Positions 1,423-19,095 are shown, numbered from the stretch's first letter. The stretch is DNA of 23,819 nucleotides from an uncultured Thermococci archaeon (GCA_964487115.1 CAZAPD010000088.1:1-23819); one strand, 5' to 3'. Notes: a model not told the origin generated them from the letters alone. Made by a program: numbers and translations.

Positions 1423-1484
1423 TAACTCCTTATGGGACTTTTCTTCAATTACCGACTTTAAATGAAAATTTGGCTTGAATAAAA

Positions 1485-1913
1485 TCACGAAGTTTTAAAA
1501 ATTAATTCTACTTCAAAAGTGTTATCAGGTGTTAAATGTATTGTTAGCCGTACAAGGTTGTCGTGTTTATACACCACATCTGAAATTAATTTGGGGATAT
1601 CCTCCTTCCTCGAACGTATCTTAATGATGTTGTATTTGTTATGGCTACTTGTTATGGTGTATGTGGGTTCCAAGTTTAAAAATATCTTTGCCAGTATGGG
1701 GTCTTGGAGGATCATTCTCACAGTTTGAGAGAGGGTTACGGGGGAAACATTTAGAGCCCTTGCGATTTTGTTGCGTGGAATTTCAATTTTTCCACATCTT
1801 AATTTTCCATCACAGGTAACCCCAACTCCATGCATAAAGAGGTACTTTACAATTTTTGTTTTTACATTATGTCCTTTGAATGGCTTTTCAAGGATCTCCC
1901 ACAACTCTGCCAT
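1485..1913 (-). CDS. COG2150-like regulator of amino acid metabolism (HTH + ACT-like domain), short C-terminus
   Basis: LWEILEKPFKG...KIVKYLFMHGVGV..DGKLRCGKIEIPRNKIARALNVS...IFLNLEP matches the COG2150 N-terminal pattern; starts 22 bp after the racemase stop on the same strand. Confidence 0.72.
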   Translation of the reverse strand: MAELWEILEKPFKGHNVKTKIVKYLFMHGVGVTCDGKLRCGKIEIPRNKIARALNVSPVTLSQTVRMILQDPILAKIFLNLEPTYTITSSHNKYNIIKIRSRKEDIPKLISDVVYKHDNLVRLTIHLTPDNTFEVELIFKTS

Positions 1914-1935
1914 TTTGATCCCTGTTATGAGGGTA

Positions 1936-3333
1936 TTACCATCCTCTAAGGAAGTTAATAATCCTGTCTGGAACTTTTCCCTTTAGACTATCTTTTATAG
2001 ATTCCTCTATAATTTCCAGCCCTCTGTCCAGATCTTCCTTAGGGATATTTAGCGCAGGGGTTATCCTGAGTACATTACCATGTTTGCCGAATGTAATGAG
2101 GATTAGCCCCTTTTCCCATGCTCTCCAGCAGATTTTTAGGGCTGTAATTTTGTCAGGAGTCTTTAATTTTTGATCCTTGACAATATCTATCCCTATAAGC
2201 AGCCCTTTTCCTCTAATGTCTCCTATTATCTCATATTTTTCTTTCATCTCTGCAAATCGTTTGAAAATGTATCTTTCGAGCTCGTTTGCTCGTTCAATTA
2301 ATTTTTCATCTTTTATTACTTCAATTGTGGCTATCGCAGCAGAAGCACTTACGGCATGACCAAGATGAGTGAAAACAAATAGAGGAGCGGGAACACTTTC
2401 CATAATCTCAGCTTTTCCAATTAATGCAGATATGGGCATCCCTCCGCCCAAAGCTTTTGATGAGACAAGCAAGTCAGGAACTGCATCAAAGTGTTCTATA
2501 CCCCACCATTTTCCAGTTCTCCCAATTCCAGTTTGGACTTCTTCATCTATTAGAACAATACCATACTCCTCAGTGAGCTTCCTTAATCCCTTTATAAATT
2601 CTTTCGGGGGAACAATAACACCAGCATCACCCTGAATTGGCTCGAGTACAACTCCAGCGACGTCCTCATTAAGTTTCTTTACTTTTGCTTCGATTTTATC
2701 TAATGTACGATTTGATAATTCTGTGGGGTTTTCATAGCCGTTTATACCCCACATGTTGCGATAAGGATCAGGATATTCAACAAATTCTATATCCTTCAGT
2801 GGATGTATCTTCTCTTTCACGTTCTGCGCAATGATTCCTGTCACTGAAAGGGCACCATAGGTCATTCCATGGTATGAATCCTTGAATGATATCATGTATC
2901 TCCTCTTTGTATGCGCCTTGGCGGCTTTTATAGAAGAATCAACACTATCGGAACCAGAAAAACCGAAGGTGACTTTCTTTTCGTATTCTCCTGGTGTTAT
3001 TTCCATTAAAAGACTGGCGAGCTTTATGGGTGGCTCAATGTAGAAATACCCAAGAGTGTAGTTGATGTATCTATCAAGTTGCTCTTTAATGCTTTCAACA
3101 ACCCTTGGATGAGTGTGACCAATATTATAGACGGCCGCACTTGTTAGAAAATCTATATATTCGTTTCCATCGATATCCCAAACCCTGCTTCCCATAGATT
3201 TCGAAACTACCAAAGGATAATATCTCAGGCCAGAAGCTTTAGGAAGATATTTCTCACCAACCTCAACAGCTTGGATGTTTTTATCAATGTTCTTGGAAGT
3301 ATATTTTTTAATATCATTCCACTTCATTTCCAT
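1936..3333 (-). CDS. PLP-dependent class-III aminotransferase-fold protein, probable broad-specificity amino acid racemase (BAR, PH0138-like)
   Basis: Motifs [50 protein letters not shown] (PLP Lys), FTH; termini ([12 protein letters not shown]..., ...[10 protein letters not shown]) resemble P. horikoshii BAR as I recall it; ATG at 3333 with a GGAGGTG RBS. Confidence 0.82.
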
Positions 3334-3683
3334 TATAACACCTCCATGGTTCCGACATGGAATATAATTATGCGATTTCCTATGCAACTTTTTATAATCA
3401 TATATTTTCTGGTCTGATATATTAGTTTTTTTCTGCTTATTTTCGCTTATTATTGATAAAATTGTGGTATTTTCCAAGGAATCATTAAATTACAATATAA
3501 AACTTTTAATTAATACACATGAACAAATATTCAAGCTATTTTATTGTTATTATTTTGATTTTATGCAAATTAAATAATAAACTTTTAAATAAATATACGA
3601 AATAAACATTACAATAGGAGCAACTTCGAAACATGGATCCTTTTTTGAAATATTAAATTAAAAAATTAAAAAATTATAGAGTT

Positions 3684-5291
3684 TTAATGTCTCTTCAGGA
3701 TTTTTCCTGGCCTTTTTCCAGTTAATTTACCTCTCTCTACGACGATTTCTCCATTAACGATTACATATTCAATTCCTTCTGGGTATTGATGGGGATTCTG
3801 GTAAGTGGCTCTGTCCCTTATTGTCTCTGGATCGAAGATAACTATATCAGCCCAGAATCCTTCCCTAAGCAGACCTCTGTCCTGTAGTCGTATTTTCCCT
3901 GCGGGTTGGGATGTCATTTTCCTGATGGCTTCTTCCAGAGATAAAAGACCCTCTTCCCTGACGTACTTTCCTAAAACTCTTGGGAATGTTCCGTATGCTC
4001 TTGGGTGTGGTTTTCCACCGGCATAGGGAGCAGTTACCCATGAATCTGAAATAACTGAGGATAGCGGATTGGAGAGAACCCACTTCACATCCTCCTCATC
4101 CATAAGGAACAGCACCATAGCTGCGTCCCCTTTTATCTCAATAAGCCAGTCAAAGAGTCCGTCATAGGGATTGTCAATGGTACCCTTTTCTTTCAGAATC
4201 TGCTCAAGCGTTTTTCCTTCATACTTTTCTATTGAACACTGTGATATGAGAACTCCATCCCATCCAGCCGCTTTTAGGAAATTCTCCCCAACTACTCTGT
4301 CTTCCTCTATTTCTTGCTTTATTTTCTCTCTGATTTTCCTGTCCTTGAGCCTTTCAAGCATTTTATCCACTCCGCCTTCTAAGACCCAGTTCGGCAGTAG
4401 AGCTGTTATGGTTGTGCTGCCTGCAGTATATGGATAAACATCACAGCTAACCTCAACTCCTCTTTTCCTCGCTCTTTCCATGAGTCTTAATGTTGCACAC
4501 ACCTTTCCCCAGTTTGGTTTTCCAGAGGCTTTGTGATGAGATATCTCAACAGGAATCCCTGCTTCTTCACCAATCCTTATGGCTTCTTCAACGGCTTCTA
4601 TTAACCGCTTTCCTTCATTTCTCATATGGGTGGTGTATATTCCTCCATACTCTGCCGCTACCTTTGCCAGTTCAATGATCTCCTCTGTTGTTGCATATGA
4701 ACCGGGAGGATATATCAACCCTGTAGACATGCCAAAAGCACCTTCTTCCATTGCCTGAGCCACTAAGGCTTTCATCTCATCCAGCTCTTCTTTAGAAGGT
4801 TTGTCTGGGTCAAATCCTTTAACTGCCAAGCGTACTGTTCCCTGTCCAACCAGTGGGGCAAGATTCATTGTAGTTCCCTGTTTTTCAACTTTCTTATAGA
4901 ACTCGTTTAATGTTCTCCAATCCCACCCATAATCAAATCCTTTTGCTAAAAATGGCGAGACGTACCGTTTCAGCAGGTCAACTTTGTCGGGATTTAGAGG
5001 GGCCATTGATATTCCACAATTACCCACTACCGCGGTTGTTACTCCCTGCATAATATAACTCTCTGCATCTGGATATGCTAAGATTGTAAGGTCGGAATGG
5101 TTGTGAAGATCAATGAAGCCGGGTGAAACCACTTTTCCCGCTGCATCTATTTCTATTTCTCCTTTTTCCTTAATTTTGCCTATTTTTGCTATCTTCCCAT
5201 TTTTTACTGCTATGTCTCCTTTGAACCATGGAACTCCAGTTCCATCTACAATCCTTCCATTTTTAATAACTAAATCAAACTCTTCCACCAT
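3684..5291 (-). CDS. N-acyl-D-amino-acid deacylase (D-aminoacylase, amidohydrolase superfamily)
   Basis: IKNGRIVDGTG, PGFIDLHNHSD, QGVTT..GNCG, THMRNE, ISHHKA, SD, PHPRAYGTFPR, ADIVIFDP; ATG at 5291 with a GGGGTGG RBS. Confidence 0.9.
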   Translation of the reverse strand: MVEEFDLVIKNGRIVDGTGVPWFKGDIAVKNGKIAKIGKIKEKGEIEIDAAGKVVSPGFIDLHNHSDLTILAYPDAESYIMQGVTTAVVGNCGISMAPLNPDKVDLLKRYVSPFLAKGFDYGWDWRTLNEFYKKVEKQGTTMNLAPLVGQGTVRLAVKGFDPDKPSKEELDEMKALVAQAMEEGAFGMSTGLIYPPGSYATTEEIIELAKVAAEYGGIYTTHMRNEGKRLIEAVEEAIRIGEEAGIPVEISHHKASGKPNWGKVCATLRLMERARKRGVEVSCDVYPYTAGSTTITALLPNWVLEGGVDKMLERLKDRKIREKIKQEIEEDRVVGENFLKAAGWDGVLISQCSIEKYEGKTLEQILKEKGTIDNPYDGLFDWLIEIKGDAAMVLFLMDEEDVKWVLSNPLSSVISDSWVTAPYAGGKPHPRAYGTFPRVLGKYVREEGLLSLEEAIRKMTSQPAGKIRLQDRGLLREGFWADIVIFDPETIRDRATYQNPHQYPEGIEYVIVNGEIVVERGKLTGKRPGKILKRH

Positions 5292-5324
5292 TTTTCCACC
5301 CCCAAAAGACAAAATGAAAAAGCG

Positions 5325-6854
5325 TTAATATTCAGCTGGAGGTTCAGCTCCCCAGAATATCCTGACGACCCTTTCTGAGGGTATTTCCTTTGTGGCATAC
5401 GTGCCAATCAGATATGCGAGCAGTGATAACAGAAGGCTTATGATAACCGGATCAAATCCAAATCTCATAGGAGGATAGAACTTCTTGGCGATGATATAAA
5501 CTACCAGTCCTGTTATCATACTTGCTATGCCACCATATCTGTTACCTCTCGGCCATAGCAAGCCCAGAATTATTGGCCAGAACAATGCCGACATTAATCC
5601 CCCAATGGCGAAGATTATGATGTATTCCAATGCTGGAGGAGCTGCCAAAGCCAACAGGAATGCCGTTAGGCCAACCCCCAAAGTTGCATATATACTGGCT
5701 GTCTTTAACTGTTCTGCAGTTGCATCTGGCTTTACAACCTGTTTGTATAAATTCTGGACTATGGCACTGCTTATCAGGATTGTCATGGCCGCTATTGTGG
5801 ACTGTGCGGCACTTACAACCCCTGCAAACACTATACCTCCGACAGCTGGAGGAAGAACCGTTAATGTCACGGCTGGAACTGCATGATCTGGAACCGATAG
5901 CTTCGGGAACCACAGTCTGGCGAAGAATCCTGTGAATAACATAACGAATGTCCAAAACGTAACTACGATTACACCAAGATAAACTGCTCTTTTCATGGCT
6001 CTTGTATCTCTATAGCTGAGAGAAGCCATTAATCCGTGAGGAAGCGCCAACAGGCCTATGCTGAAGATTATCCACCATGAAATGACTATCTTTGCTCCTA
6101 AGGCATAAGGGTCAACATATTTTTGGCCAACCGTCTGAACCAAGGCATTATGAACTCCCACCAAGCTTCCGTAATGGGAGAGAGCGCCTCCAAATACACC
6201 AACTGCCAGTAAGATTGCTGCAAATGTCATGAAGACTCCCTGCAATACTGTTGCTAAACCTACTCCTCTTATTCCTCCTGTCGTTGCATAGAAAACTGTC
6301 ACTAATCCAGTTAGGATCAGGGCTGTTCTGTATGACCATCCCGTCATCACTTCAAAAATCCTTGATGCACCCACAAACTGGGAGGAGGCATATGCAATTA
6401 GAAATATCACTACCGGCAATGCATATGCTAATGCCACAAGCTTGCTCCTCTCATACCGCTCAAAGAGTATATCTCCAACTGAGAGAGCCCCTGTTCGTCT
6501 CGCTATTATGCCTATTATTTTTCCAACCCCAATTAGGATCATGAAATTCATAAAAATCTGCGACCCCACTATAGTAGCCCATGGCATTCCGAGTTTCCAA
6601 GATAGTCCCGGCCCACCTACAAATGTTCCGACACTGCATAGGCCAGCACCGATAAGGAATGCCACAACAACGGCTCCAAGTAGCCTTCCCCCCGTGTAGA
6701 ATTCCTCTGCGAATTTATCGATGACAGTTTTCCCGAGTCTCTTTCTGGTGTAAATGCCGATCAAGAGCAAACCAACAAGATATATTGTAAATACTATTGC
6801 TACTGCAATTCTCTCAGAAGATGTTATCGCGATCTCTTCTCCTGCCATTTTCAT
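5325..6854 (-). CDS. Sodium:solute symporter (SSS; PanF/PutP-like)
   Basis: About 13 hydrophobic segments; EFYTGGRLLG, S.GTFVGGPG, GGIRGV, ALPH, AAQST, LGLLW.RGNRYG motifs; start at 6854 or 6848. Confidence 0.9.
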   Translation of the reverse strand: MKMAGEEIAITSSERIAVAIVFTIYLVGLLLIGIYTRKRLGKTVIDKFAEEFYTGGRLLGAVVVAFLIGAGLCSVGTFVGGPGLSWKLGMPWATIVGSQIFMNFMILIGVGKIIGIIARRTGALSVGDILFERYERSKLVALAYALPVVIFLIAYASSQFVGASRIFEVMTGWSYRTALILTGLVTVFYATTGGIRGVGLATVLQGVFMTFAAILLAVGVFGGALSHYGSLVGVHNALVQTVGQKYVDPYALGAKIVISWWIIFSIGLLALPHGLMASLSYRDTRAMKRAVYLGVIVVTFWTFVMLFTGFFARLWFPKLSVPDHAVPAVTLTVLPPAVGGIVFAGVVSAAQSTIAAMTILISSAIVQNLYKQVVKPDATAEQLKTASIYATLGVGLTAFLLALAAPPALEYIIIFAIGGLMSALFWPIILGLLWPRGNRYGGIASMITGLVVYIIAKKFYPPMRFGFDPVIISLLLSLLAYLIGTYATKEIPSERVVRIFWGAEPPAEY

Positions 6855-7135
6855 TCCTCCTTCTTTTCAGATAACCAAGGGGATAAATCTATGTCTTCAA
6901 TCAGATTCCGCGTTGCAACAATCACTATCACTAGGAAGATCAATGAAATCCAGAGAAGGTTGAACCACCATGGAACTCCAAGAACCACTGCATTTGGGTT
7001 CTTTCCGACTCCAAATACATATGCGAGATATACGATGCTGTACACTGCCCATATGGATACCACAATAAAGAATTCCTTTCTCGCCCTCTTAAGGCGGGGG
7101 TCTTCTTTAATCCCGTATTCCTCAAGCACACCCAC
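6851..7135 (-). CDS. YhdT/DUF997-like small two-TM membrane protein accompanying the SSS transporter
   Basis: DPRLKRARKE...2 TM...GVPWWF...IEDIDL resembles YhdT; 4-bp ATGA overlap with the SSS gene; GTG start with an upstream GGGGTGGAG. Confidence 0.75.
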   Translation of the reverse strand: MGVLEEYGIKEDPRLKRARKEFFIVVSIWAVYSIVYLAYVFGVGKNPNAVVLGVPWWFNLLWISLIFLVIVIVATRNLIEDIDLSPWLSEKKEE

Positions 7136-7396: not shown

Positions 7397-7879
7397 ATGA
7401 ATGTGAGGCAGAATAAAAACAAAAACAAAGTCGAGCTTGATGAAATTGACAAAATAATATTGAAGCTCCTACAAGAAGATGGCAGAATGAGTTATTCGGA
7501 AATAAGTAGAAGGGTAAAGATTCCAGAATCCACTGTAAGGGTGAGGGTCAACAAGCTCGTGAAAAATGGCGTTATCAGAAAATTTGCCGCATTAATAAAC
7601 CCATTCAAAGCTGGATATAATATAATTGCTGTTATTGTTGTAGACGCTGAGCCGGCTAAAGTAAGACATGTTATTGATGAGCTTGCAAAACTCCCTGAGG
7701 TAGATGTCCTTGGAATTGCAACGGGTGCTCATGATATCTTTATGCAGGTTACAGCGAAAAATCTGCAGGAGCTTGAGACATTCATACTGGAAAAACTGGC
7801 GAAAATTGATGGGATAAAAAGCACGGAAACTTCAATATTAACCAGCGTCAAAAAATGGGGTTATGCCAGGGTTTTCTGA
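7397..7879 (+). CDS. Lrp/AsnC family transcriptional regulator (feast/famine regulatory protein)
   Basis: LDEIDKIILKLLQEDGRMSYSEISRRVKIPESTVRVRVNKLVKNGVI HTH plus a RAM domain (ATGAHDIF); start at 7397 or GTG 7403 after GGGGAG. Confidence 0.93.
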   Translation: MNVRQNKNKNKVELDEIDKIILKLLQEDGRMSYSEISRRVKIPESTVRVRVNKLVKNGVIRKFAALINPFKAGYNIIAVIVVDAEPAKVRHVIDELAKLPEVDVLGIATGAHDIFMQVTAKNLQELETFILEKLAKIDGIKSTETSILTSVKKWGYARVF

Positions 7880-7923
7880 GTATTGTTCATTTTTCTTTGG
7901 GTTCATTTAACAGATTAGATAAT

Positions 7924-7937
7924 AAAAGGTTTTTAAG
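7924..7937 (+). promoter_or_regulatory. BRE/TATA promoter of the HAN gene
   Basis: AAAAGG-TTTTTAAG about 35 bp upstream of ATG 7971. Confidence 0.55.
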
Positions 7938-7970
7938 ATGCACCCATACACTGAGGTAGAGGTGGGAAGA

Positions 7971-10196
7971 ATGGTGGTCAAAGACTGTCCCGAGTGCCAT
8001 GGAACTGGTAAGGTTAGGAGTGGCGAGAAAGATTGTCCTGTTTGTAATGGATGGGGTTATGTACCTGCTGACTTCAAGCTTGATTCTCATCTTAAAGGCT
8101 ATCGTAATCTTGACTACCTCGGAGTTGAGGATGAGGTGGATGAAATTCCCTGTCCTGAGTGTCACGGTAAAGGGACTATTCCTGTATATGATACCTGCCC
8201 CACGTGTGGTGGGACTGGGAAGGTTCTTGCATGTGATATCTGTGGTAGAATAAAAGAGCCATGGGAACCGGGTATGGAGACGACATGGGTTTGTCCGGAG
8301 TGTGAGAGGAAGTATAAACTTGTTTATATCCTTGACAAGACGTGCGATTATGAGGATATTGAAGTTGGCAATGTGTATCTTGGCTCTATTGAAAGGGTTG
8401 AACGTTTTGGAGTCTTTGTAAAGCTTAATCCACATGTTACCGGACTGATAAAGCGGAAGGATCTCCTTGGAGGTAAGGATTACATTCCGGGTCAGGAGAT
8501 TCTCGTTCAGGTTCTCGATGTCAGACCTGACAAAAGAGAAGTAGACCTCGTTGAGTCTGCAATGAGGCACTACAAGACAATAACAGTTAGGAAGGAGCTT
8601 CCGGTTACCCCCTTAGGAGAACTCAGGAAGGATATGGCCGGAAAGACTGTCAGACTTAGAGGCAGGGTTATTCAGATTCAGGTAACAGGCGGTCCTACGG
8701 TATTTACCCTCACTGATGGAACGGGGATCACATGGGCCGCAGGTTTTGAGGCTCCCGGTGTTAGGGCTTACCCAAGCATAAATGTAGGGGACATTGTTGA
8801 GGTCATAGGAAAAGTTTCGTTCCATGCGGGAGAAATTCAGATTGAAGTAAGTGACATGTCGAGGCTCTGGGGGCCTGAGGCTGCTGAAGTTAAAAAGCAG
8901 ATAGAGGAGGAACTTGATAGAAAAGCTCAGCCCAGGGATGTGGGCTTTCTTGTGCAGAGCGAGATTCTTGAAAAGCTGAAGCCAAAAATAATGGAGGCGG
9001 CTTTCGTCATAAGGAGAGCAATTTACGAAGGCAGGCCGATTCTTCTGAGGCATCATGCTGATGCTGATGGCTACACTTCTGGATTGGCCCTTGAGAGTGC
9101 TATAATCCCCCTTATGGAAGAGGTATCGCCGGATCCCGATGCAAAGTGGCACCTATTTAAGAGAAGACCGTCGAGAGCACCCTTTTATGAGCTGGAAGAC
9201 GTTCTTAAGGATATAATCTTCATGGTTGAAGACAGCGAGAAGTTTGGAGAGCCGTTTCCCCTCATAGTTATAGTCGACAACGGGGGGACCAGTGAAGATA
9301 TTCCTGCCTACAAGAGACTGAAGGCTTATGGCGTTCCAATTGTTGTCATAGATCACCACGACCCGCGCGAGTGGGTTAGCGAGAATAGAGCTAAAGTTGA
9401 TGAATACATTGACGTCCATGTCAACCCGCACCACATAAAGCGCGGTTACTATGAGCTCACAGCGGGAATGCTGGCAACAGAAGTTGCGAGGTTCATCAAC
9501 CCAGAGGTGGAGGACAGGATAAAACACCTCCCTGCCATAGCTGGGACCGGTGACAGGAGTAAAGCTCCAGAGTTCTACCAGTACCTTGAGATAGCGAAGA
9601 AGGCGAAAGGCCTAACCGAAGAAGACCTGAAGAAGATAGCTGAGGTCATAGACCATGAGGCCTTCTACTGGAAGTTCATGGACGGGCATGGAATCATAGA
9701 CGAGATTTTGCTCCTCACGGGCAACCTCCAGAGGCACCGCGAGCTCATCAATGCCATCTATCCAGAGGTCAGGGAGAAGCAGGAGAAGGCCCTCAAAGCT
9801 TCCCTGCCCCACGTCAAAAGCGTCGTCCTGCCCAACGGGATAAGGTTCAACACGATAGACGTCGAGCTCTTCGCCCCGAAGTTCAGCTATCCATCCCCGG
9901 GCAAGCTCTCTGGCCTGATACACGACCACTTCAAGGAGAAGTACGGGGAGGATGCGCCGATACTTACCCTCGCCTACGGCCCAGACTTCGCGGTGGTCAG
10001 GGCGGCGGATGGAATGTCTGCCTACAGCTTCGACCTCAACGAGATAATACCCACACTCCAAGAGAAGCTGCCAAGCGCGGGCATAGAGGGCGGCGGCCAC
10101 AGCTACGCAGGTTCGATAAAGTTCTTCGAGGGCATGCGCAAGGAGGTGCTTGAGGAGTTCGCTAAGCAGGTGGTGAAGCTGAAGAAAATTTTATGA
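7971..10196 (+). CDS. han: RecJ-like DHH phosphoesterase with DnaJ-type Zn finger and S1/OB domains (HAN, Hef-associated nuclease type)
   Basis: Repeated CxxCxGxG motifs, S1 domain (FGVFVKL..HVTGLI), OB fold, HHADADG, VDNG, IDHH, DHHA1 GGGH; ATG at 7971 with a GAGGTGG RBS. Confidence 0.9.
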   Translation: MVVKDCPECHGTGKVRSGEKDCPVCNGWGYVPADFKLDSHLKGYRNLDYLGVEDEVDEIPCPECHGKGTIPVYDTCPTCGGTGKVLACDICGRIKEPWEPGMETTWVCPECERKYKLVYILDKTCDYEDIEVGNVYLGSIERVERFGVFVKLNPHVTGLIKRKDLLGGKDYIPGQEILVQVLDVRPDKREVDLVESAMRHYKTITVRKELPVTPLGELRKDMAGKTVRLRGRVIQIQVTGGPTVFTLTDGTGITWAAGFEAPGVRAYPSINVGDIVEVIGKVSFHAGEIQIEVSDMSRLWGPEAAEVKKQIEEELDRKAQPRDVGFLVQSEILEKLKPKIMEAAFVIRRAIYEGRPILLRHHADADGYTSGLALESAIIPLMEEVSPDPDAKWHLFKRRPSRAPFYELEDVLKDIIFMVEDSEKFGEPFPLIVIVDNGGTSEDIPAYKRLKAYGVPIVVIDHHDPREWVSENRAKVDEYIDVHVNPHHIKRGYYELTAGMLATEVARFINPEVEDRIKHLPAIAGTGDRSKAPEFYQYLEIAKKAKGLTEEDLKKIAEVIDHEAFYWKFMDGHGIIDEILLLTGNLQRHRELINAIYPEVREKQEKALKASLPHVKSVVLPNGIRFNTIDVELFAPKFSYPSPGKLSGLIHDHFKEKYGEDAPILTLAYGPDFAVVRAADGMSAYSFDLNEIIPTLQEKLPSAGIEGGGHSYAGSIKFFEGMRKEVLEEFAKQVVKLKKIL

Positions 10197-10313: not shown

Positions 10314-10385
10314 TACCTTTAATTACCTTTAATGAGAACCTTAATCCTTTTATATTATTCAGTTAATTTTTCTTTGGTGATGCCA

Positions 10386-10601
10386 ATGTATCTCGCTGAA
10401 TTCAAACTTAGGTATGGAAATATGAAATGGTATGTCAGGAGGATCGTTGAGGCTTCTTCGCTTGAGGAGGCTAAGGAATTAGCTGACCGGTATGCAAAAG
10501 CCATGAATAGGGGAGAAGTCACATGGACAGTTAGCTACGTTATAGAGGCAAATAGACCATTGATTATCGGCAAAGAAGAGCTTGAGAAGCTTTGTACTTG
10601 A
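10386..10601 (+). CDS. Small hypothetical protein (~71 aa)
   Basis: MYLAEFKLRYGNMKWYVRRIVEASSLEEAKELADRYAK...; GGTGA RBS at 10376-10380; T-tract after the stop. Confidence 0.7.
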   Translation: MYLAEFKLRYGNMKWYVRRIVEASSLEEAKELADRYAKAMNRGEVTWTVSYVIEANRPLIIGKEELEKLCT

Positions 10602-10633
10602 TTTTTAATTTTGAAATATAGTAGGAAAGAAAT

Positions 10634-11815
10634 TCAGTACTCTTTTATGAAGGTCATTAAAATCATAGCTGCCGTGCTCATTCCGGCTGCATAGATGAAT
10701 GAGTAGCTTATGCTGTATGTCTGCCATAACCATCCCGCTATAAGCGATGCAGGGAACACAAAAACTCCGAAAACCGTGTGATAAGCACCTATTACCGTTC
10801 CCTTCTCAAATTCCCTTGCAAGATCTGCCATATATGCCCTTGGGATGGTGTCTTCTATTGCTATATACAAGCCGTAGAGAATGAAGGCTGCCATAAGTGT
10901 TATCAGGTCTCTGGCATAGGCAAAACTGAGAGCGGCAAGTGTTGCTATTCCAAATCCAAGGGTTATCATCCTTTTTTTTCCGAATCTGTCGGAGTATAGG
11001 CCGAAAGGATATGCTGAGAGTGCGTAAATTGCGTTGAAAAGGGCGTAAAAGCCGATGCTTTGAACAATTGAGTAGCCTAAGGTCTGGGCTTTCCATATTG
11101 TGAATGCATAGCTATACCGTCCCAGAGCTCCGAGAGCTACGACAAAGAGGAAGAGCCGCAGATTTCTATCCTTTAGGGCTGAGATATCCTTAATTTTCTT
11201 TTTCACTTCCTGTCCCCGATCCCTGACGAAGAGGATTATAACGAAGAGTGACAGAAGTCCCGGAACTGCCGAGAGAAGGAATATATACCGGTATTTCCTC
11301 TGCATGGGGATGTTTTTGAGAAGTTCCAAGAGAGCTATGGCAAGCAGGGGGCCTGCAACCGCTCCGAGAGTGTCCATCATCCTGTGGAAACCAAACGCTT
11401 TTCCCGTCTTGCCTTTTTCAGTGGACTCTGCTATTAGGGCGTCTCTCGGTGCTGTTCTTATTCCCTTCCCTATTCTGTCGAGGATTCTCAATCCAAGAAA
11501 ATCCCACCAGAAGTGGGTAAATGCCAGACCTGCCTTTGACACCATTGAGAGCGTGTATCCAATCAGCACAAACGCCTTTCTCTTTCTGAATCTGTCGCTC
11601 ACATATCCAAAAGCGACCTTAAACAGGGAGCTGAGACTTTCAATTGCACCCATAATTGAACCGCTAAGAAGCTTTCCAGTGCCGAGAACATCCCTTAGGT
11701 AACCCGGCATGACAGGCATTATCATCTCACTGCTCATATCATTTAGAAAGCTAACTATACCGAGCAAAAATACATTCCAGCTTATCCCGAAAATTTTGCG
11801 GCTTCTCTCATTCAT
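10634..11815 (-). CDS. MFS transporter
   Basis: 12 TM; SFLNDMSSEM, GYVSDRFRKRK, RIGKGIRTAPRDALI, GKAFGFHRMMDTLGA, SDRFGKK; ATG at 11815 with a GGTGA RBS. Confidence 0.92.
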   Translation of the reverse strand: MNERSRKIFGISWNVFLLGIVSFLNDMSSEMIMPVMPGYLRDVLGTGKLLSGSIMGAIESLSSLFKVAFGYVSDRFRKRKAFVLIGYTLSMVSKAGLAFTHFWWDFLGLRILDRIGKGIRTAPRDALIAESTEKGKTGKAFGFHRMMDTLGAVAGPLLAIALLELLKNIPMQRKYRYIFLLSAVPGLLSLFVIILFVRDRGQEVKKKIKDISALKDRNLRLFLFVVALGALGRYSYAFTIWKAQTLGYSIVQSIGFYALFNAIYALSAYPFGLYSDRFGKKRMITLGFGIATLAALSFAYARDLITLMAAFILYGLYIAIEDTIPRAYMADLAREFEKGTVIGAYHTVFGVFVFPASLIAGWLWQTYSISYSFIYAAGMSTAAMILMTFIKEY

Positions 11816-12116
11816 CCCAATCACCTAAAAGCTCTTTGCAGAGTTCTTCAACTTTTTTCTTGCCTTCTTCCAGTGCATTCCTGCCTTTTTCTGTTATTTC
11901 GTAGATTCTAACTCTCTTCCCATTTTTTATCTCCCAGCGGCTCTTCAGCATGTTCTTTTCCTCCATTTCATGCAGCAGGGGGTATATTGTGCCCGGACTT
12001 ATGTTGTAGCCGTGCTTTCTGAGTTCTTCCATCATAAAAGTACCTGTTATCGGATTTTTTGCGGCATGGTGAAGAGTGTGGAGCATCAGGAATTCGCGAT
12101 ATTTCATATCGAACAC
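11808..12116 (-). CDS. PadR family transcriptional regulator
   Basis: GTFMMEELRKHGYNISPGTIYPLLHEMEEKNML...RVRIYEITEKGR winged HTH; overlaps the MFS start; start at GTG 12116 or ATG 12107. Confidence 0.9.
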   Translation of the reverse strand: MFDMKYREFLMLHTLHHAAKNPITGTFMMEELRKHGYNISPGTIYPLLHEMEEKNMLKSRWEIKNGKRVRIYEITEKGRNALEEGKKKVEELCKELLGDWDE

Positions 12117-12148
12117 CGATATCGAAATTCGATATTAGGGTATAAAAA
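12106..12148 (-). promoter_or_regulatory. TATA box plus tandem palindromic operator (probable PadR autoregulatory site)
   Basis: ATATCG-AACAC-CGATAT (12106-12122) overlapping ATATCG-AAATT-CGATAT (12119-12135); minus-strand TTTTTATA at 12148-12141. Confidence 0.75.
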
Positions 12149-12177
12149 CCTTGTGCATTAAGATAAAAATACAAAAA

Positions 12178-12564
12178 TCACTCCAAGACGTGTTTCTCAA
12201 GGACATAGCAATAAAACTTTCCTTCAAAGACCTTTTCCTTCTTTTGGTTGAACACATCAACCCACACGATTTTCTTCTTTTCTGACTCTTCTCGAAGTTC
12301 TCCTCTGGCCAGAAGCTCTTCTCCTACTCTGACAGGTTTAAGGAATTTAACTTCAGCTTTTGCAAGAACGACTGTGGGTTCGTTCACGGCCAGCATTGCC
12401 GCATAGTCGGCCAGTCCGAAGGTAAAACCACCATGTACGAGCCCATATTCGTCGACTGCCATCTCTTCTTTCGTTTTTAATTTGACCTCGGCATACCCTT
12501 TCTCGATCTTTACAGGTTCTCCCACAATTTCCTTTGAGGTTAGTCTGTGTGTTTTCTGCTCCAT
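12178..12564 (-). CDS. PaaI family hotdog-fold thioesterase
   Basis: MAVDEYGLVHGGFTFGLADYAAM, KFLKPV motifs. Confidence 0.88.
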   Translation of the reverse strand: MEQKTHRLTSKEIVGEPVKIEKGYAEVKLKTKEEMAVDEYGLVHGGFTFGLADYAAMLAVNEPTVVLAKAEVKFLKPVRVGEELLARGELREESEKKKIVWVDVFNQKKEKVFEGKFYCYVLEKHVLE

Positions 12565-12662
12565 CTCAAACCACCGGGAATAGATATGTCCATTGGAGAT
12601 ATAAACATTTACATTATGGTAAAACTTTTAAACCTTCTTTCAAACTCCCAGTGGTGAGGGAG

Positions 12663-13301
12663 ATGGTGTATTTTGAACATACTCCCGATTACGGTGCTTA
12701 CCTCCTCATGCTGTTCCTGTATTATGTTGGGGCAATTGCCCTCATACTGTATGGAGCATACATAAACAGGAAATTTCTGTTAAAGAAGAAGTTCGTTTGG
12801 GTTGATATGAAGCCCGGACTGGTGCCTTTTCTGAAGAAGTTTCTCCCGTGGCTTTTGATAGCTCTACTGATATGGTCATTTGCAACATTCAAGCTAACTG
12901 ACTATTACCTCTCTTCCTATTCTTTCACATTCAGCGGCACTCACCTGACTGGAGAGGGTGTGATTGATGATCTGGCCGGCAATCGGAGATACACTTTCGA
13001 TATCGATGAACTTAGGAGCTTTGGCGTTCCTTCTTTTGGACTGCTGAAGGGTTATAAACTTGAGGCATCAGAGAAAGAGGGGCTGTTTATAAAAAATGTC
13101 AATCAAATCGTTGTGATTCAGGGCTATCCATTTTTGCCCGTTGTGAAACTCTATATCTATGAGGTGAAAGAGAACAAGATTGTGAATATGCATACGGCAT
13201 ATATGTATTTTCCAAGATCCCCATCAGACAGACTTAGGCAGATATTTGACTTTCCCTTTGCTCTGTTCTACTGGAGTGGGGGAGGAGGGCCTGGAGCTTA
13301 G
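12663..13301 (+). CDS. Hypothetical membrane protein (2 N-terminal TM segments + soluble domain)
   Basis: ATG at 12663 with a GGTGAGGGAG RBS and an AAAAC-TTTTAAA TATA at ~12621-12632; two hydrophobic helices. Confidence 0.72.
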   Translation: MVYFEHTPDYGAYLLMLFLYYVGAIALILYGAYINRKFLLKKKFVWVDMKPGLVPFLKKFLPWLLIALLIWSFATFKLTDYYLSSYSFTFSGTHLTGEGVIDDLAGNRRYTFDIDELRSFGVPSFGLLKGYKLEASEKEGLFIKNVNQIVVIQGYPFLPVVKLYIYEVKENKIVNMHTAYMYFPRSPSDRLRQIFDFPFALFYWSGGGGPGA

Positions 13302-13346
13302 TAAAGCTTTTTTATTTCCTTTGCCCAATTTTGTTTGGTGAGTTTG

Positions 13347-13745
13347 GTGAAATCCCTGAGAAATGCAATTCTATACAAAGGGTCAAATGAATTTAACAAA
13401 CAGGAGCTTATAGGCATATTGGTTTTTACCCTTAAGCTTATGGATGTTAAATCAGCCAAAGAGCTCATTGAAAGAGGTATTAAAAGTGGGGTGATAGTGG
13501 AGAAGGACGGAACCTTGATAATCAACGAAGAGCTTTTAGAAAATGAGGAGAAAAAAGAATGTCTGAGAGATGAAATGGCATCTTATATAGCTAAAATGCT
13601 TGGATGGAGTAAAGAAGATGTTGTTGAGGAGGCGGAGAAGCTGAAAGATAGGTACGGAGACCTTGATGAAAAGATACTGGTTTACCTGTTTGGCATGGAT
13701 AAAGGAGTTGACATGTCCCGGTTTAAAGACAAGCTGGAGGTGTGA
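13347..13745 (+). CDS. DUF2240 family protein
   Basis: AILYKGSNEF...ELIGILVFTLKLMDVKSAKELI...YGDLD...DKGVD pattern; GTG at 13347 after a GGTGA RBS. Confidence 0.72.
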   Translation: MKSLRNAILYKGSNEFNKQELIGILVFTLKLMDVKSAKELIERGIKSGVIVEKDGTLIINEELLENEEKKECLRDEMASYIAKMLGWSKEDVVEEAEKLKDRYGDLDEKILVYLFGMDKGVDMSRFKDKLEV

Positions 13746-13747
13746 AT

Positions 13748-14293
13748 ATGGAAGCTCTGATAGTTGTCGACATGCAGCGTGATTTTATGCCCGGCGGAGC
13801 CTTGCCCGTGCCTGAGGGGGATAAGATAATTTCCAAGTGTAATGAATACATCAAGAAATTTAAGGAACGAGGAGCGCTTATAGTGGCTACAAGAGACTGG
13901 CACCCGGAGAATCATGTAAGTTTCAGAGAACAGGGAGGCCCATGGCCGAAACATTGTGTTCAGAATACTCCTGGAGCGGAATTCGTTGTGAATCTACCAA
14001 GAGATGCCATCATTGTTTCGAAAGCTAACAGGGAGGACATGGAAGCATATTCGGGATTTGAAGGTACAAATCTGGCGGAAATTCTAAGGGATAAAGGGGT
14101 GAAGAAGGTCTACATCTGTGGAGTTGCTACTGAGTACTGTGTAAAGGCAACTGCACTTGATGCAATAAAACATGGTTTTGAAGTTTACCTTCTCGGCGAT
14201 GCTATAAAGGGAATAACGCCTGAGGACGAGAAAAAAGCCCTCAGAGAGCTTAAAGAGAGCGGTGTCAGGCTGTTGAAGTCTGGGTTTTTGTAA
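13748..14293 (+). CDS. pncA: Nicotinamidase/pyrazinamidase (isochorismatase family)
   Basis: ALIVVDMQRDF.PGGALPV, TRDWHP, WPKHCVQ, K, YSGF, GVATEYCV catalytic motifs; GGAGGTG RBS. Confidence 0.92.
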   Translation: MEALIVVDMQRDFMPGGALPVPEGDKIISKCNEYIKKFKERGALIVATRDWHPENHVSFREQGGPWPKHCVQNTPGAEFVVNLPRDAIIVSKANREDMEAYSGFEGTNLAEILRDKGVKKVYICGVATEYCVKATALDAIKHGFEVYLLGDAIKGITPEDEKKALRELKESGVRLLKSGFL

Positions 14294-15266
14294 TTTCTTT
14301 CCACTCCCTTAGCAGTGTTAGTGTGACATTCAGGACGATCGGGCCAATAAGTACTCCTTTCATACCGAACGCCCAGATTCCACCTACCATCCCAATAAAT
14401 ACTATCGTTTCATTAAGCTTAGCTTCTTTTGCAACCAGTAATGGTCGTATCGTATAATCTGGTAAGGGCGAAACCAGAACGGCCCCATAAATGGAGATTC
14501 CAACTGCTTTCCAGATAGCTCCTATTCTGTAGAGATATATTGCAGCGGCAACCCAGAACATCCAGCCCTCTAAGAGGGGGACAAAGCTGAATAAAATAGT
14601 TAGAATTCCAACTACAATTGCAGTGTAGATATCCGAAATCCCAAAGATTATAAAACCTAATGTCATCAGGAAGCCTTTGGCAATATTTAGAAGGAGCCAT
14701 GCTCGTATAAGGGCATGTAAGGTGATATCGATACTGTGTATGAGCTTCTCTCCAAGCTTCCTCTGTTTTGGGGGGAAGAGATTTTCAATACGTGCTTTTA
14801 TTTCCTTTGAATAATAGAGGGAATAGTATATTACAAAGAAAAAGACTATAAGCTGAAGCAGATATGAAGGGAGAGAGAATGCTTGGGCAGATATGTATCT
14901 TGATAAATTTGGCCCCAGCTGGTTAAAAAAGCTGTTTATGGCTTGAGAAATCCCGAACGGAAAGTAAAGACCTTTAATCCATTCTGTAAATGCAGAAAAA
15001 TCCCCATAAAATGATGTTATAAGTCTCCCAAAAATTAGTATCATTTCAACTGTTAGGGCTATTCCAATTATCAGCATTAATGATGTTATGAACAGAGCAG
15101 AGTTCTTTACTCCTTTTCTTCTTGAGAGGGCCTTGTGAATTGGATATACTGCATATGCTATGATAATACCAAAAAAGATAGATGTCACTAAAGGCTCAAT
15201 GACCTTCCAGCTCACATATAAAACTATTCCAATGAATACTACCCACGCTATACTTTCAGCTTTCAT
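14265..15266 (-). CDS. AI-2E family transporter (UPF0118/PerM)
   Basis: Multi-TM; AYAVYP, SFVPLLEG, PDYTIRPLL, FIGMVGGIWAFGMKGVLIGP; ATG at 15266. Confidence 0.88.
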   Translation of the reverse strand: MKAESIAWVVFIGIVLYVSWKVIEPLVTSIFFGIIIAYAVYPIHKALSRRKGVKNSALFITSLMLIIGIALTVEMILIFGRLITSFYGDFSAFTEWIKGLYFPFGISQAINSFFNQLGPNLSRYISAQAFSLPSYLLQLIVFFFVIYYSLYYSKEIKARIENLFPPKQRKLGEKLIHSIDITLHALIRAWLLLNIAKGFLMTLGFIIFGISDIYTAIVVGILTILFSFVPLLEGWMFWVAAAIYLYRIGAIWKAVGISIYGAVLVSPLPDYTIRPLLVAKEAKLNETIVFIGMVGGIWAFGMKGVLIGPIVLNVTLTLLREWKEITKTQTSTA

Positions 15267-15306
15267 AACAACATATTTATTAATGGTCCAATTTATAAAA
15301 TTATAC

Positions 15307-15624
15307 ATGGAGGATAAACTCAAGAATCGGATATATGAATACCTAATGAAGGGAAATAAGTTTTTAGGCAAACATAAACTTGAATTAGCCTTTAAATCTT
15401 ATGTAAAAGGTCTTTATGTTGCCAGCACGTATCTTGTATACCGAGATACGGGAATGCTCCTTCCGCCTCATGATGCAATCAGGATACTGCAAAGCAGGTA
15501 TCCTGACGTCTATGATGTTGTTACATTTTACAGTAGGTTTCAAGGAGAAATTTCAGAGGTGATCTTGGGAAAGATAAAACGTGACTTGGAAGACATATGT
15601 GACAGCCTCATCTCAAAATTCTGA
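15307..15624 (+). CDS. Hypothetical helical protein (105 aa), possibly HEPN-like
   Basis: MEDKLKNRIYEYLMKG...; ATG at 15307 lies ~24 bp after TTTATTAA; the upstream ORF-track extension overlaps the AI-2E gene. Confidence 0.65.
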   Translation: MEDKLKNRIYEYLMKGNKFLGKHKLELAFKSYVKGLYVASTYLVYRDTGMLLPPHDAIRILQSRYPDVYDVVTFYSRFQGEISEVILGKIKRDLEDICDSLISKF

Positions 15625-15795
15625 TTATCTTTTTAAAATATCGATTTTAAGGTATAGTATGTCCAAATTAGTAATTTTATTAAAAAATATCATGTTGATA
15701 TATTATGATTTTTAAAATCTCAACAATAAATCAACAAAAATATGACCAAAAAATTAATACATTCTTCAAGAATTATCATAAACGTGGTGATTACC

Positions 15796-16641: not shown

Positions 16642-16646
16642 TTGAA

Positions 16647-17663
16647 ATGGGGATACATGAAGAGGCGTTTGTGTTTGATGCCCATTCCGACATTTTATAC
16701 AACGTCTTTAGGGAGCATAAAGCCGGCAGGAAAAATGTTATAGCTGAAGATTTTCTCCCGGACATGAAGAAAGGAGGAATAAACGCCAGAGTACTTGCGA
16801 TATACCTTGATAATAGCTCCTTACCAGAAATGGCATTGAGGCATGCTTTGGACTACATCTCAAACTTCTATGAAGAGCTTGAGAACACTCCGGAAATCTC
16901 GCTCTGCCGCAACTACAAGGAGATAATGGATGCGCATAACAAAGGAAAGATAGCCTTTATCCTTGGGATGGAAGGTGCAGAGCCCTTAGAAAACGATATT
17001 GATTTGCTCAGAATATTCCACGAGCTGGGGCTTAGGGTGCTCACCCTAACACACAGCAGACGGAATTACATAGGAGATGGTGCATTTTTAAAGCCGCAGA
17101 AATCGGGAACACCGGGAGGATTATCTCCGTTTGGCATTGAAGTGCTTGAAGAAGCCCATAAACTTGGAATAATTATAGATGTCTCCCATTTAAACGACCC
17201 GGGCTTCTGGGATGTTGTGGAATTCTCAAGTGATCCCATTATTGCATCTCATTCGAACTGCAGAGCACTTGTAAATCATCCGAGAAACTTGACAGATGAG
17301 CAGATAAAGGCAATAGCAGAGAGAGATGGGGTTATTGGTATGAATGCTGCAGGTCTTTTTGTTGATGAGGAGGCACCGACACTCGATAAGCTAATTGACC
17401 ATATAGACCACATAGTGGAGCTTGTTGGAGTTAAGCACGTGGGATTGGGATTTGACTTCTTCGATTACACGCTTAAGTATCTCAGTGAAGAGGAGAGGAG
17501 ATACCTGCCTCTGGATAACATATACACAAAGGACCTCGTGGGTGATACTGATGTTCCAAAACTCACTGAGAAACTCATTGAGAGAGGATACAGTGAGCGA
17601 GACATCAAGCGTATTCTTGGAGAAAACTTCCTGGAGGTTTTTAAAAAGGTTGTAGGTGGTTGA
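16647..17663 (+). CDS. Membrane/renal-type dipeptidase, peptidase family M19
   Basis: DAHSD, MEG, LTH..RN, DVSH, ASHSN..RNLTD, GFDF motifs; ATG at 16647 after GAGGTG. Confidence 0.9.
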   Translation: MGIHEEAFVFDAHSDILYNVFREHKAGRKNVIAEDFLPDMKKGGINARVLAIYLDNSSLPEMALRHALDYISNFYEELENTPEISLCRNYKEIMDAHNKGKIAFILGMEGAEPLENDIDLLRIFHELGLRVLTLTHSRRNYIGDGAFLKPQKSGTPGGLSPFGIEVLEEAHKLGIIIDVSHLNDPGFWDVVEFSSDPIIASHSNCRALVNHPRNLTDEQIKAIAERDGVIGMNAAGLFVDEEAPTLDKLIDHIDHIVELVGVKHVGLGFDFFDYTLKYLSEEERRYLPLDNIYTKDLVGDTDVPKLTEKLIERGYSERDIKRILGENFLEVFKKVVGG

Positions 17664-17664
17664 A

Positions 17665-19095
17665 ATGAGCTCTGGTGGCTTAAAGAAAGAAGTTACATTT
17701 TTTGGTTTGCTTGCCTTTGGAATGGCAGGCATAATTGGAACGAGCTGGACATACATGAACACAAGGTTCTACAAGCTCTATGGGCCTGGAGGTGTCATTT
17801 TTGGCTTTATGATCGGGACCCTCATGGCTGCCCTCATTGCTCTATCCTATGCCGAACTTGGGGCTGCGATCAAAAGGGAAGGGGGAGAAGTGGCATTTGC
17901 ATATCCAGTCTTTGGAGTTAAGGGTTCGTTCTTTGCGGCATGGATGCTATTCCTTGGATACATAACAGGGGCAATGAGTTTCTATGTTATAGGCTTACCC
18001 TTACTCCTAAGCTGGTTCTTCCCTCAGCTTAACACAATCCCAATATACTCCATAGCTGGAACTCCCGTGTATCTGCCTTCATTGCTTTTAGGAATTGCAG
18101 GGGCACTGTTTTTCTTCTATCTGAACTACAGAGGTGTTAAACTCGCTCAGGGATTTCAGATGGTAATGTTCCTGACACTTATTGGAATTGGTGCATTGGC
18201 TTTAATAGTTGCTCTGGCTAAAGGCTCGCTTTCCAACATGCATCCGCTCTTTCCAAAAGGGACTTCTCCACTTGAATCTCCTCTGAGATTTACCTTAATA
18301 ACAATTGGATATCTCACTGGATTCTCCATGCTAACCATGATCGGTGAGGAAAGTGCTGTTACAGAAAAGAAATTTGGATTAGCGATAGTTCTCTCAGTGA
18401 CTTTGGCTGGGTTCTTCTACATACTCGAAATGTTTGCTGGGGCAATCATGCTCCCTGTTTCTCAGTCTATAAACCTGAGCAGGGGTTTGATAGATGAAAT
18501 GGCAACAATAGCTAAACCGTTGGGTTATGTAATGTGGCTGGCAGGGTTTATTGGGTTGGTTACGAGCTGGAATGCTGCTGTTCTTGCCGGCTCAAGGCTT
18601 GTCTTCAGCATGTCCAGAATGGGACTATTGCCTGAGACCTTTTCAAAGCTACATGACAAATACGGCACACCCACAAATGCTCTTATTTTAGCCACGATAG
18701 TGTCGATCTGCTTTGGAATGCTTGGATTGGGAGCATTGGTCTGGTTCCTCGACATAACAGGAGTCGCAATTGGTGTTGCATGGGGTATTTCGGTTATATC
18801 CATGATAGTCATGAGGAGGAAATACCCACAGCTGGAGAGACCATTCAGAACACCCGGCGGAATATTAACGGGTATAATCGCTCTTATCCTTGTTGCAGTG
18901 GTTGTAATATTGCCACTAATTCCGGGGACTTCAATGAGCTTAGAATGGCCTCATGAGTATGGTGTTTTGATACTGTGGCTTATATTGGGAGCGATTCTCT
19001 ACTATTCCTCGAAGAGGAGGTGGGAGCAGCTTGGAATAGAAACTATCGCCAGAAATCTGCTTGGAGAGTACTATGACAAGCTCTACAGGAAGTGA
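17665..19095 (+). CDS. APC family amino acid/polyamine permease
   Basis: GIIGTS, SYAELG...GG, GF...EE, SRLVFSMSR.GLLP, HDKYGTP, RPFRTP motifs; 12 TM. Confidence 0.92.
   Translation: MSSGGLKKEVTFFGLLAFGMAGIIGTSWTYMNTRFYKLYGPGGVIFGFMIGTLMAALIALSYAELGAAIKREGGEVAFAYPVFGVKGSFFAAWMLFLGYITGAMSFYVIGLPLLLSWFFPQLNTIPIYSIAGTPVYLPSLLLGIAGALFFFYLNYRGVKLAQGFQMVMFLTLIGIGALALIVALAKGSLSNMHPLFPKGTSPLESPLRFTLITIGYLTGFSMLTMIGEESAVTEKKFGLAIVLSVTLAGFFYILEMFAGAIMLPVSQSINLSRGLIDEMATIAKPLGYVMWLAGFIGLVTSWNAAVLAGSRLVFSMSRMGLLPETFSKLHDKYGTPTNALILATIVSICFGMLGLGALVWFLDITGVAIGVAWGISVISMIVMRRKYPQLERPFRTPGGILTGIIALILVAVVVILPLIPGTSMSLEWPHEYGVLILWLILGAILYYSSKRRWEQLGIETIARNLLGEYYDKLYRK

Follow-up and report, generated by a model that had tools for sequence, protein, structure and literature searches.

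A probable D-amino-acid salvage island, divided by an inversion, in an uncultured Thermococci archaeon

The window analysed here is a whole contig of 23,819 nucleotides (C88; GCA_964487115.1, CAZAPD010000088.1:1-23819) from the genome of an uncultured Thermococci archaeon (G000; 2.06 Mb, 96.5% complete). Genomes, contigs and loci are cited below by their G, C and L numbers. Two groups of genes, with about 8 kb of housekeeping genes between them, were found in the window: a left group on the minus strand with a divergent Lrp gene, and a right group (M55, M19 and APC) on the plus strand. The nine genes concerned (Table 1) likely represent one horizontally acquired island of ~10 kb that was later split by an inversion of ~14 kb. 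We consider that the island probably serves the salvage of D-amino acids by import, release and racemisation, under the control of an orthologue of the published D-allo-Ile sensor DARP. Listing of the open reading frames (ORFs) and family scans recovered every gene named in a preliminary description of this DNA, with families as described there; the small DUF997 membrane gene ahead of the symporter gene was missing from its list.

Table 1. Features of the island and its surroundings in the window (positions from the first base)
Feature	Position	Strand	Basis
Left inversion breakpoint, between orf979 and the TrpY-like gene	1423..1484		Relatives join orf979 to orf15160 and AI-2E
TrpY-like regulator, 142 amino acids, short C-terminal domain; closes the BAR transcription unit	1485..1913	-	NF053754
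BAR-clade amino acid racemase, class-III pyridoxal-phosphate (PLP) enzyme	1936..3333	-	PDB 9wrf, tree, residues
Predicted BAR promoter: upstream element, B recognition element (BRE) and TATA	3418..3448	-	Rank 1 of 383 core-promoter-like sites
N-acyl-D-amino-acid deacylase (D-aminoacylase) family amidohydrolase, cysteine-bridged type	3684..5291	-	Best PDB matches are D-aminoacylases
Sodium:solute symporter (SSS), PanF/PutP-like	5325..6854	-	PF00474
DUF997 membrane protein with two helices; its gene forms a pair with that of SSS	6851..7135	-	PF06196
DARP (PH0140) orthologue, Lrp/AsnC feast-famine regulator	7397..7879	+	PDB 9w4v, 270 bits
Island edge; sequence resumes as the DHH-gene promoter, directly after the MFS stop in island-free G049	7880..7925		blastn
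Housekeeping block (DHH/S1, MFS, PadR, thioesterase, nicotinamidase, AI-2E and others), inside the inversion and outside the system	7938..15624		Family scans, flank order in relatives
Right inversion breakpoint, between orf15160 and the M55 promoter	15625..15730		Flank order, blastn
Predicted M55-operon promoter, element and spacing as in BAR promoters	15732..15761	+	Rank 2 genome-wide
M55 (DppA-like) aminopeptidase, second copy in the genome	15796..16641	+	PF04951, 277 bits; PDB 1hi9
M19 dipeptidase, second copy in the genome	16647..17663	+	PF01244, 333 bits
APC permease, candidate D-dipeptide importer, subfamily linked to D-peptide hydrolases	17665..19095	+	5 of 99 genomes
Other island edge, where the MFS gene (19128-20294) has its stop codon	19096..19127		blastn

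A probable single island split by an inversion

In relatives without the island at this site, all eight long regions show the same flank order: S-layer, (MFS), DHH ... nicotinamidase, AI-2E, orf15160, (orf979) and DUF4152. In these regions DHH and DUF4152 lie on the same strand, and MFS comes directly before DHH in seven of the eight. Among 29 short loci, AI-2E or orf15160 adjoins DUF4152 in 27, the remaining two being short contig ends, and MFS stands ahead of DHH in 12. The situation in the window is different, in that DUF4152 is upstream of DHH and on the opposite strand, and MFS is found 9 kb downstream. Flipping positions ~1485-15624 back restores the ancestral order and leaves a single run, DARP< DUF997>SSS>acylase>BAR>TrpY-like>M55>M19>APC (arrowheads give the direction of transcription), between DHH and MFS. 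Two conserved flank genes without a Pfam match, orf979 (979-1422, plus strand) and orf15160 (15160-15624, plus strand), are neighbours in the relatives and have been parted by the inversion; the idea that orf15160 is a chance frame was rejected, as it is a conserved flank gene.

The junctions point the same way, as blastn places the two island edges on adjacent bases of G049 (contig C148), after the stop codon of MFS. Elsewhere in its genome G049 carries an unflipped run: contig C128 reads YkvI-like>BAR>TrpY-like>M55, and its end has an exact overlap of 108 bases with two contigs that each read M55>M19>APC. Because these two contigs show 91% similarity and another BAR start is present, G049 may mix strains or hold two copies. 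An assembly artefact in the window was rejected, since the same flipped order is found in G066.

Two unrelated insertions, lying 8 kb apart by chance, would account for the housekeeping genes between the groups and for the wide separation of the parts in G011 and G009. However, the flank order and junctions show one insertion and one inversion, and the genes are contiguous in G049; independent insertions are thus largely refuted, and we regard them as extremely improbable. The preliminary description had spoken of two linked modules, and the linkage of a single divided island is stronger than was thought there. Only short AT-rich matches, and no clear inverted repeat, were found at the breakpoints, and a scan of the window detected no tRNA gene. 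The G+C content was discarded as an island marker, the values of 0.34-0.45 in the island and 0.43 in the genome not being diagnostic.

The racemase and the regulator genes

The PLP enzyme is an orthologue of the racemase BAR, as judged from its matches, tree position and residues. Its best PDB match is BAR itself (9wrf, 769 bits), followed by Ala/Ser racemase (ASR; 411 bits) and a further match (341 bits), and a 25-row tree places it in the BAR clade (100/100), apart from the ASR, MAR-type and aminotransferase paralogues. The racemase aspartate (QGDAG) and the Schiff-base lysine are kept as D235 and K292, whereas the aminotransferase paralogues carry Glu at the aspartate position. The catalytic Lys/Asp pairs are K291/D234 in ASR and K280/D222 in ILEP (PMC6047364). 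These results uphold the earlier naming of a BAR-like racemase, and its racemase activity can likely be carried over from the papers on orthologues. An ASR-clade (Ala/Ser-racemase-type) gene is present on contig C84 of G000. Elsewhere, a class I/II aminotransferase gene is frequently found behind BAR (L036:11048-12166, L039:876-2498, L233, L234, L241 and L246), and in two loci (G097 and L234) a gene with an aminoacyl-tRNA editing domain also comes after BAR.

The divergent Lrp gene is, on the match and contact residues, the orthologue of DARP. Its protein scores 270 bits against PH0140, and the next family member scores 100. Ten of the 11 ligand contacts (T141, T143, G108, D111, V106, H110, L121, I128, L129, V87 and I105) are identical, the main-chain contact V106 being replaced by Ala, and all eight DNA contacts (Y31, S32, P41, E42, S43, T44, R46 and R48) are invariant. 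In the Pyrococcus horikoshii system the DARP switch, in which DARP binds the operon promoter with L-Ile and is released by D-allo-Ile, has been demonstrated, racemase and regulator serving the use of D-amino acids; the ligands are Ile, Leu, Met and Val, and substitution with D-Ala or D-Glu gave no rise in BAR activity (PMC13628549). In the order-wide survey set of 99 Thermococcales genomes, DARP-like regulators are found in 71. Copies of at least 80% identity occur in six genomes besides G000, all with BAR, and the 68% copy of G049 faces a different racemase paralogue.

The TrpY-like protein scores 67 bits against NF053754, under the cut-off of 180, and covers positions 1-112 of 163. Its nearest relatives sit behind BAR in G066 (70%), G049 (47%) and G098 (37%). 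Its structure model was of low confidence (predicted local distance difference test score, pLDDT, 55), too weak for a judgement on its fold. Of the two amino-acid-sensing regulators of the preliminary description, only the Lrp gene is supported as such, since the TrpY-like match is partial and below the cut-off.

The hydrolases

The amidohydrolase has the sequence marks of D-aminoacylase subtype V, that is, a His-His-Cys-His-His metal site, an Asp base, a YPY motif and a carboxylate-binding Arg (PMC12149444). With residues mapped to the numbering of that paper by motif, the metal site (H63, H65, C92, H222 and H252), the base D416, the Y286-P287-Y288 motif and R431 are invariant, and Y194 is also present. 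Its identity is 52-56% to the Thermococcales copies linked to ABC genes (54-56% to the g3 copies) and 61-85% to many mostly unnamed proteins; this closer kinship outside the ABC-linked Thermococcales copies indicates a separate arrival. A Pyrococcus abyssi enzyme appears in Table 1 of PMC12149444 as an N-acyl-D-aspartate deacylase. The window enzyme is presumed to be specific for D-substrates.

The M55 protein aligns with 1hi9 with identical DxE, H, H, H and E residues, which we take to be the metal and catalytic positions. It scores 155 against the NCBIfam DppA equivalog cut-off of 430, and is thus a family member and no DppA equivalog. It belongs to a clade of paralogues from G000, G066, G062 and G049, and the M55 tree gave no supported joining of the window copy with Desulfurococcaceae copies. 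The M19 protein keeps the HxD, E, H and H residues and an Asp, presumably the metal ligands and the catalytic residue, and is nearer to proteins from outside the Thermococcales than to the core copy. The core paralogues in G000 have identities of 61% (M55) and 46% (M19) to the island copies. Bacterial M19 enzymes and some D-acylases cleave L-Xaa-D-Xaa peptides, and the island M55 and M19 enzymes may likewise be D-specific; a search of open-licence literature on M19 D-specificity gave nothing usable. A simple hydropathy check revealed no signal-peptide-like or membrane segment in the racemase or the three hydrolases, so that import of the substrates must come first.

The transporters and an APC subfamily beside D-peptide hydrolases

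The SSS gene occupies the place of the YkvI-type transporter in other BAR clusters, and no YkvI-type match was found anywhere in G000. A close SSS copy exists in only two of the 99 genomes (G066 besides the window), and a small gene similar to DUF997 stands ahead of SSS relatives in L132-L134.

Relatives of the APC permease were collected as 67 loci by a scan of genomes with names. The clade of the window APC comprises seven rows, six of them archaeal; M19 adjoins APC in six and M55 in five (these counts include the window and two Thermococcaceae rows, which are not independent of the order survey). In L177 (Desulfurococcaceae), M19 and an APC in two pieces are followed by M55, a BAR-clade racemase and a peptide ABC set. 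The M19 of L177 is of another lineage (33%), which indicates that M19 was recruited twice.

Lentilactobacillus and Caldanaerobacter are among the bacteria with sisters of this APC. Within the sister clade from bacteria, APC has the gene of an M15 D-Ala-D-Ala dipeptidase directly behind it in 16 of 51 loci (L167-L171, L178, L180, L182-L184, L187, L189, L190, L209, L211 and L217) from Bacillota, Actinomycetota and Pseudomonadota; the M15 profile was run on all 67 loci, and the Pfam scan covered 70 of the 88 neighbours picked. The zinc motifs of these M15 proteins are kept (11/12 and 12/12). L172 reads APC>S12 peptidase>DUF819>enolase-family epimerase-like>NlpC/P60, and a D-Ala-D-Ala ligase gene lies nearby in L169 and L187. 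The subfamily thus adjoins M15, M55, M19 or S12 peptidases, four unrelated folds with D-peptide-cleaving members. Other APC neighbours are CoA ligases, aldehyde dehydrogenases and regulators, and so not every member serves D-peptides. No paper on the APC-M15 pairing was found in open-licence text. A bolder proposal, which we put forward tentatively and hold to be somewhat doubtful, is that the subfamily represents secondary transporters of a family not recognised so far, which carry D-Ala-D-Ala and further D-containing dipeptides, working with M15 in bacteria and with M55 and M19 in archaea of two phyla, under DARP in the Thermococcales, and that archaea without walls live off the cell-wall dipeptides of their neighbours.

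The promoters

Promoters were sought on both strands with a matrix of a 14-base element, BRE and TATA, trained on eight BAR-operon promoters from other genomes. The BAR and M55 promoters of the window head the genome-wide list (Table 1), and two five-promoter training subsets ranked them 1 and 3, and 1 and 2. The M55 element alone ranks third of 383, which is matched by shuffled element columns in 5 of 500 trials; the total rank of 2 is equalled by 32 of 500 column shuffles. Acylase promoters of four other loci score 19-21, and the M55 promoter of G066 scores 4.7. The shared element is a suggestive candidate, and no more, for a DARP operator. Two other scans were abandoned: a strict IUPAC motif found two sites in five genomes (the D-acylase promoter of G006 and the BAR promoter of G066) and missed the training promoters, and a sigma-70 scan, a method unsuited to archaea, remained at chance level. 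Upstream of a MAR-type racemase paralogue on contig C56 (G000:C56:35681-37027), which has no adjoining Lrp gene, the promoter element scores 10.6; this paralogue is possibly a further DARP target.

Distribution in the Thermococcales

Of the 99 genomes, nine have a BAR orthologue, six the D-acylase, five the APC permease and nine Pab87. The M55 type of the window is found in G000, G066, G049 and G062, and its M19 type in G000, G066, G049 and G011, with a broken copy in G009. All five carriers of APC and M19 are among the nine BAR carriers (1.8e-6 by simple counting, with kinship ignored), and four of the six D-acylase carriers have BAR. The non-independent occurrence of the two modules expected in the preliminary description was thus borne out.

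In G006 and G011 the order is YkvI-like>BAR<DARP>Pab87-like>DUF819>acylase>peptide ABC. BAR-clade genes from metagenomes (31 loci with a match of at least 53%, two of which duplicate G000 and G066) include, besides these two, two with the acylase and one with M19 and SSS; most carry just a YkvI-like or APC carrier, or an aminotransferase. BAR and a carrier therefore form the core, and the hydrolases are optional additions. Decay is visible in the complete g3 genomes G009 (L037:10719-12071 and L038:9482-10100), G011 (L034:9016-10450) and G006 (L030:8190-9071), where we recognized a Pab87-like gene interrupted by a stop, remnants of M19 and APC, and split copies of APC and DUF819.

Proposed pathway and its alternatives

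In the proposed pathway, free D-amino acids, N-acyl-D-amino acids and D-containing dipeptides would enter the cell through SSS and APC. The D-residue would be released in the cytoplasm by the acylase, M55 and M19, and BAR would convert it to the L form. DARP would repress the BAR promoter, and presumably that of M55, while L-Ile, Leu, Met and Val are plentiful, and binding of D-allo-Ile or D-Val would free the promoters. The food source is most likely mixed, that is, heat-racemised peptides together with small bacterial D-peptides such as D-Ala-D-Ala. D-Ala-D-Ala is a fair candidate for the substrate of the M55/APC arm; released D-Ala would more likely be handled by the Ala/Ser-racemase-type gene on C84, which would finish this arm.

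Several observations weigh against D-amino-acid salvage. The M55 and M19 families are nearly universal (81 and 93 of the 99 genomes) and have second copies in G000, so that family names alone prove little, and a sequence feature that separates D- from L-specific M19 or M55 enzymes was not found. The co-occurrence amounts to about three lineages. Two of the six D-acylase carriers are without BAR, and four of the nine BAR genomes (one of them only 61% complete) are without the APC/M19 pair. BAR gave no match in G062, which has an M55 of the window type; in G011 and G009, 0.76-0.95 Mb separate the pair from BAR, and its genes are frameshifted or decayed. As for the carriers, APC and SSS proteins usually move single amino acids or small solutes; M15 is missing from 35 of the 51 bacterial APC loci, and the comparison of the 16 loci that have it with none of nine outgroup rows (one short row dropped) gives p = 0.10. 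The promoter signal is gone when the matrix is trained on three g3 promoters alone, the DUF997-SSS-acylase promoter scores 8.5 as against 26 and 22, and common ancestry of the island promoters could yield the same pattern. Finally, D-allo-Ile induced, among functional genes of P. horikoshii, PH0137 and PH0138 only (PMC13628549).

Some of these points would suit general scavenging of peptides and amino acids, in which M55, M19 and APC act on common L-dipeptides, the handling of D forms being left to BAR, DARP and perhaps the acylase. The Thermococcales are peptide-fed, both peptidase families are nearly universal in them, M19 enzymes of the renal type hydrolyse both L-L and L-D dipeptides, and in P. 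horikoshii no peptidase was among the genes induced by D-allo-Ile. However, a core M55 and M19 are already encoded in the genome and the extra pair is found only with BAR; the permease subfamily stands beside M15, M55, M19 or S12 D-peptide folds, and the M55 promoter is BAR-like. We therefore consider scavenging alone unlikely.

A dedicated route for bacterial muropeptides, which was the strongest reading in the preliminary description and also the proposal of Delfosse (2009) for the Pab87 cluster, seems less likely still. It would agree with the D-specificity of DppA and Pab87 and with the trimming of muropeptides by Pab87 (PMC2651629), and with the APC sisters beside D-Ala-D-Ala dipeptidases, the ligase of L169 and L187, and the S12, epimerase-like and NlpC/P60 genes of L172. 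However, searches of G000 found no NlpC/P60, no MurQ over the cut-off, no L-Ala-D/L-Glu epimerase (its enolase being the only member of that family) and no S12 peptidase with the Pab87 octamerisation domain. The island has no peptide ABC set, BAR activity was not increased by D-Ala and D-Glu substitution, and the amino acids to which DARP responds are Ile, Leu, Met and Val. Because the muropeptide-opening enzymes and Pab87 were not found, and because BAR and DARP favour hydrophobic amino acids, feeding on whole muropeptides is unlikely, and the earlier suggestion of cell-wall fragments as the main food is weakly supported.

Detoxification, in which D-amino acids and D-peptides are removed so as not to be charged onto tRNA and their food value is secondary, would be in keeping with the aminoacyl-tRNA editing genes behind BAR in G097 and L234 and with the fast racemisation at these temperatures. 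Two importers are, however, encoded together with the enzymes, and the release of DARP only when the L form is scarce follows a feeding logic, which makes detoxification very unlikely. Salvage of D-amino acids for food is thus the reading that we prefer.

Comparison with known systems

The P. horikoshii BAR cluster comprises PH0137 (a YkvI-type carrier), PH0138 (BAR) and PH0140 (DARP), and the DARP cluster is reported in three Pyrococcus genomes only (PMC13628549). The island resembles it in the orthologous racemase and regulator, in the logic of carrier, racemase and sensor, and in a similar promoter layout. It differs in having no YkvI gene and in carrying SSS with DUF997, APC, the acylase, M55, M19 and the TrpY-like gene; moreover, DARP is divergent from the operon in the island and convergent in P. 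horikoshii. BAR together with DARP was found in four genera of the order.

In P. abyssi, Pab87 (CubicO; MEROPS S12) is clustered with PAB0086, PAB0090 (a D-aminoacylase) and the genes PAB0091-95 of a dipeptide ABC transporter; Pab87 was shown to be D-specific, and feeding on cell-wall debris was proposed from its gene neighbourhood (Delfosse 2009, PMC2651629). The preliminary description knew of no account of such a combination as one system; its novelty is not supported, since this proposal covers a Pab87, D-aminoacylase and ABC cluster. A BAR-type gene, a D-aminoacylase, a D-peptidase and an importer stand together in both systems, with the same feeding hypothesis. However, the window has neither Pab87 (which G049 also lacks) nor the dipeptide ABC, and M55 with M19 would serve both of the ends for which Pab87 suffices by itself.

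In Bacillus subtilis, dppA stands with dppBCDE, and murein-peptide genes follow behind. DppA, an M55 enzyme, is a D-specific aminopeptidase (PMC2651629). As in B. subtilis, the M55 gene of the island heads an operon with an importer; in contrast to the dpp operon, the island has no ABC importer, epimerase or NlpC/P60 gene, and its M55 falls far below the equivalog cut-off given above. The Escherichia coli ddpXABCDF genes encode a VanX/DdpX-type M15 D-Ala-D-Ala dipeptidase with an importer. The bacterial sisters of the window APC, followed by M15 with its zinc motifs, are like such systems; unlike ddp, the carrier is a secondary APC permease and not an ABC importer, and the archaeal M19 and M55 take the place of M15.

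New here are the version with M55, M19 and APC and without Pab87, its spread beyond Pyrococcus and the candidate transporter; the feeding idea was already known. No paper on this version was found in open-licence text, although subscription work of the Kawakami and Atomi groups may cover part of it, and a similar search on other Thermococcus racemases gave nothing usable. Both papers on the Pyrococcus systems close with the source of the D-amino acids and their physiological role as unknown (PMC13628549, PMC2651629). The island sets the likely upstream steps (acylase, two peptidases and two carriers) beside BAR and DARP, and thereby offers a candidate for the DARP operator as well as candidate substrates. 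With it, the range of the BAR/DARP cluster grows from three Pyrococcus genomes to four genera, the route gains a second, Pab87-free build, and one specific APC subfamily stands out as a candidate carrier of D-dipeptides; the four enzymes of the island, expected to be thermostable, may be of use in D-amino-acid chemistry.

Neighbouring genes and further loci

The DHH gene (7938-10196), which encodes zinc-finger repeats with S1 and OB domains, is present in 97 of the 99 genomes, and the S-layer-like gene (20503-21966), in an AT-richer stretch, is an ordinary flank gene. In several lineages, D-amino-acid genes have entered the position ahead of the DHH gene. Three D-acylases, two peptide ABC sets, a beta-lactamase-like gene of class A and Pab87 are found there in G066 (C402:1-10444 and C394), and L232 has an acylase, an ABC, DARP and BAR at the same site.

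The Asp/Glu/hydantoin-racemase family has eight genes in G000. Four of them lie in G000:C90:63800-80400 (L325), together with two DUF917 (S-Me-THD-like) genes, DUF1177, AroM, an M29 peptidase, an OPT carrier, a peptide ABC set and an Lrp gene. A further run in G000:C55:29500-35700 (L326) combines a gene of this racemase family with an NCS1 permease, a hydantoinase/oxoprolinase, DUF917 and Lrp.

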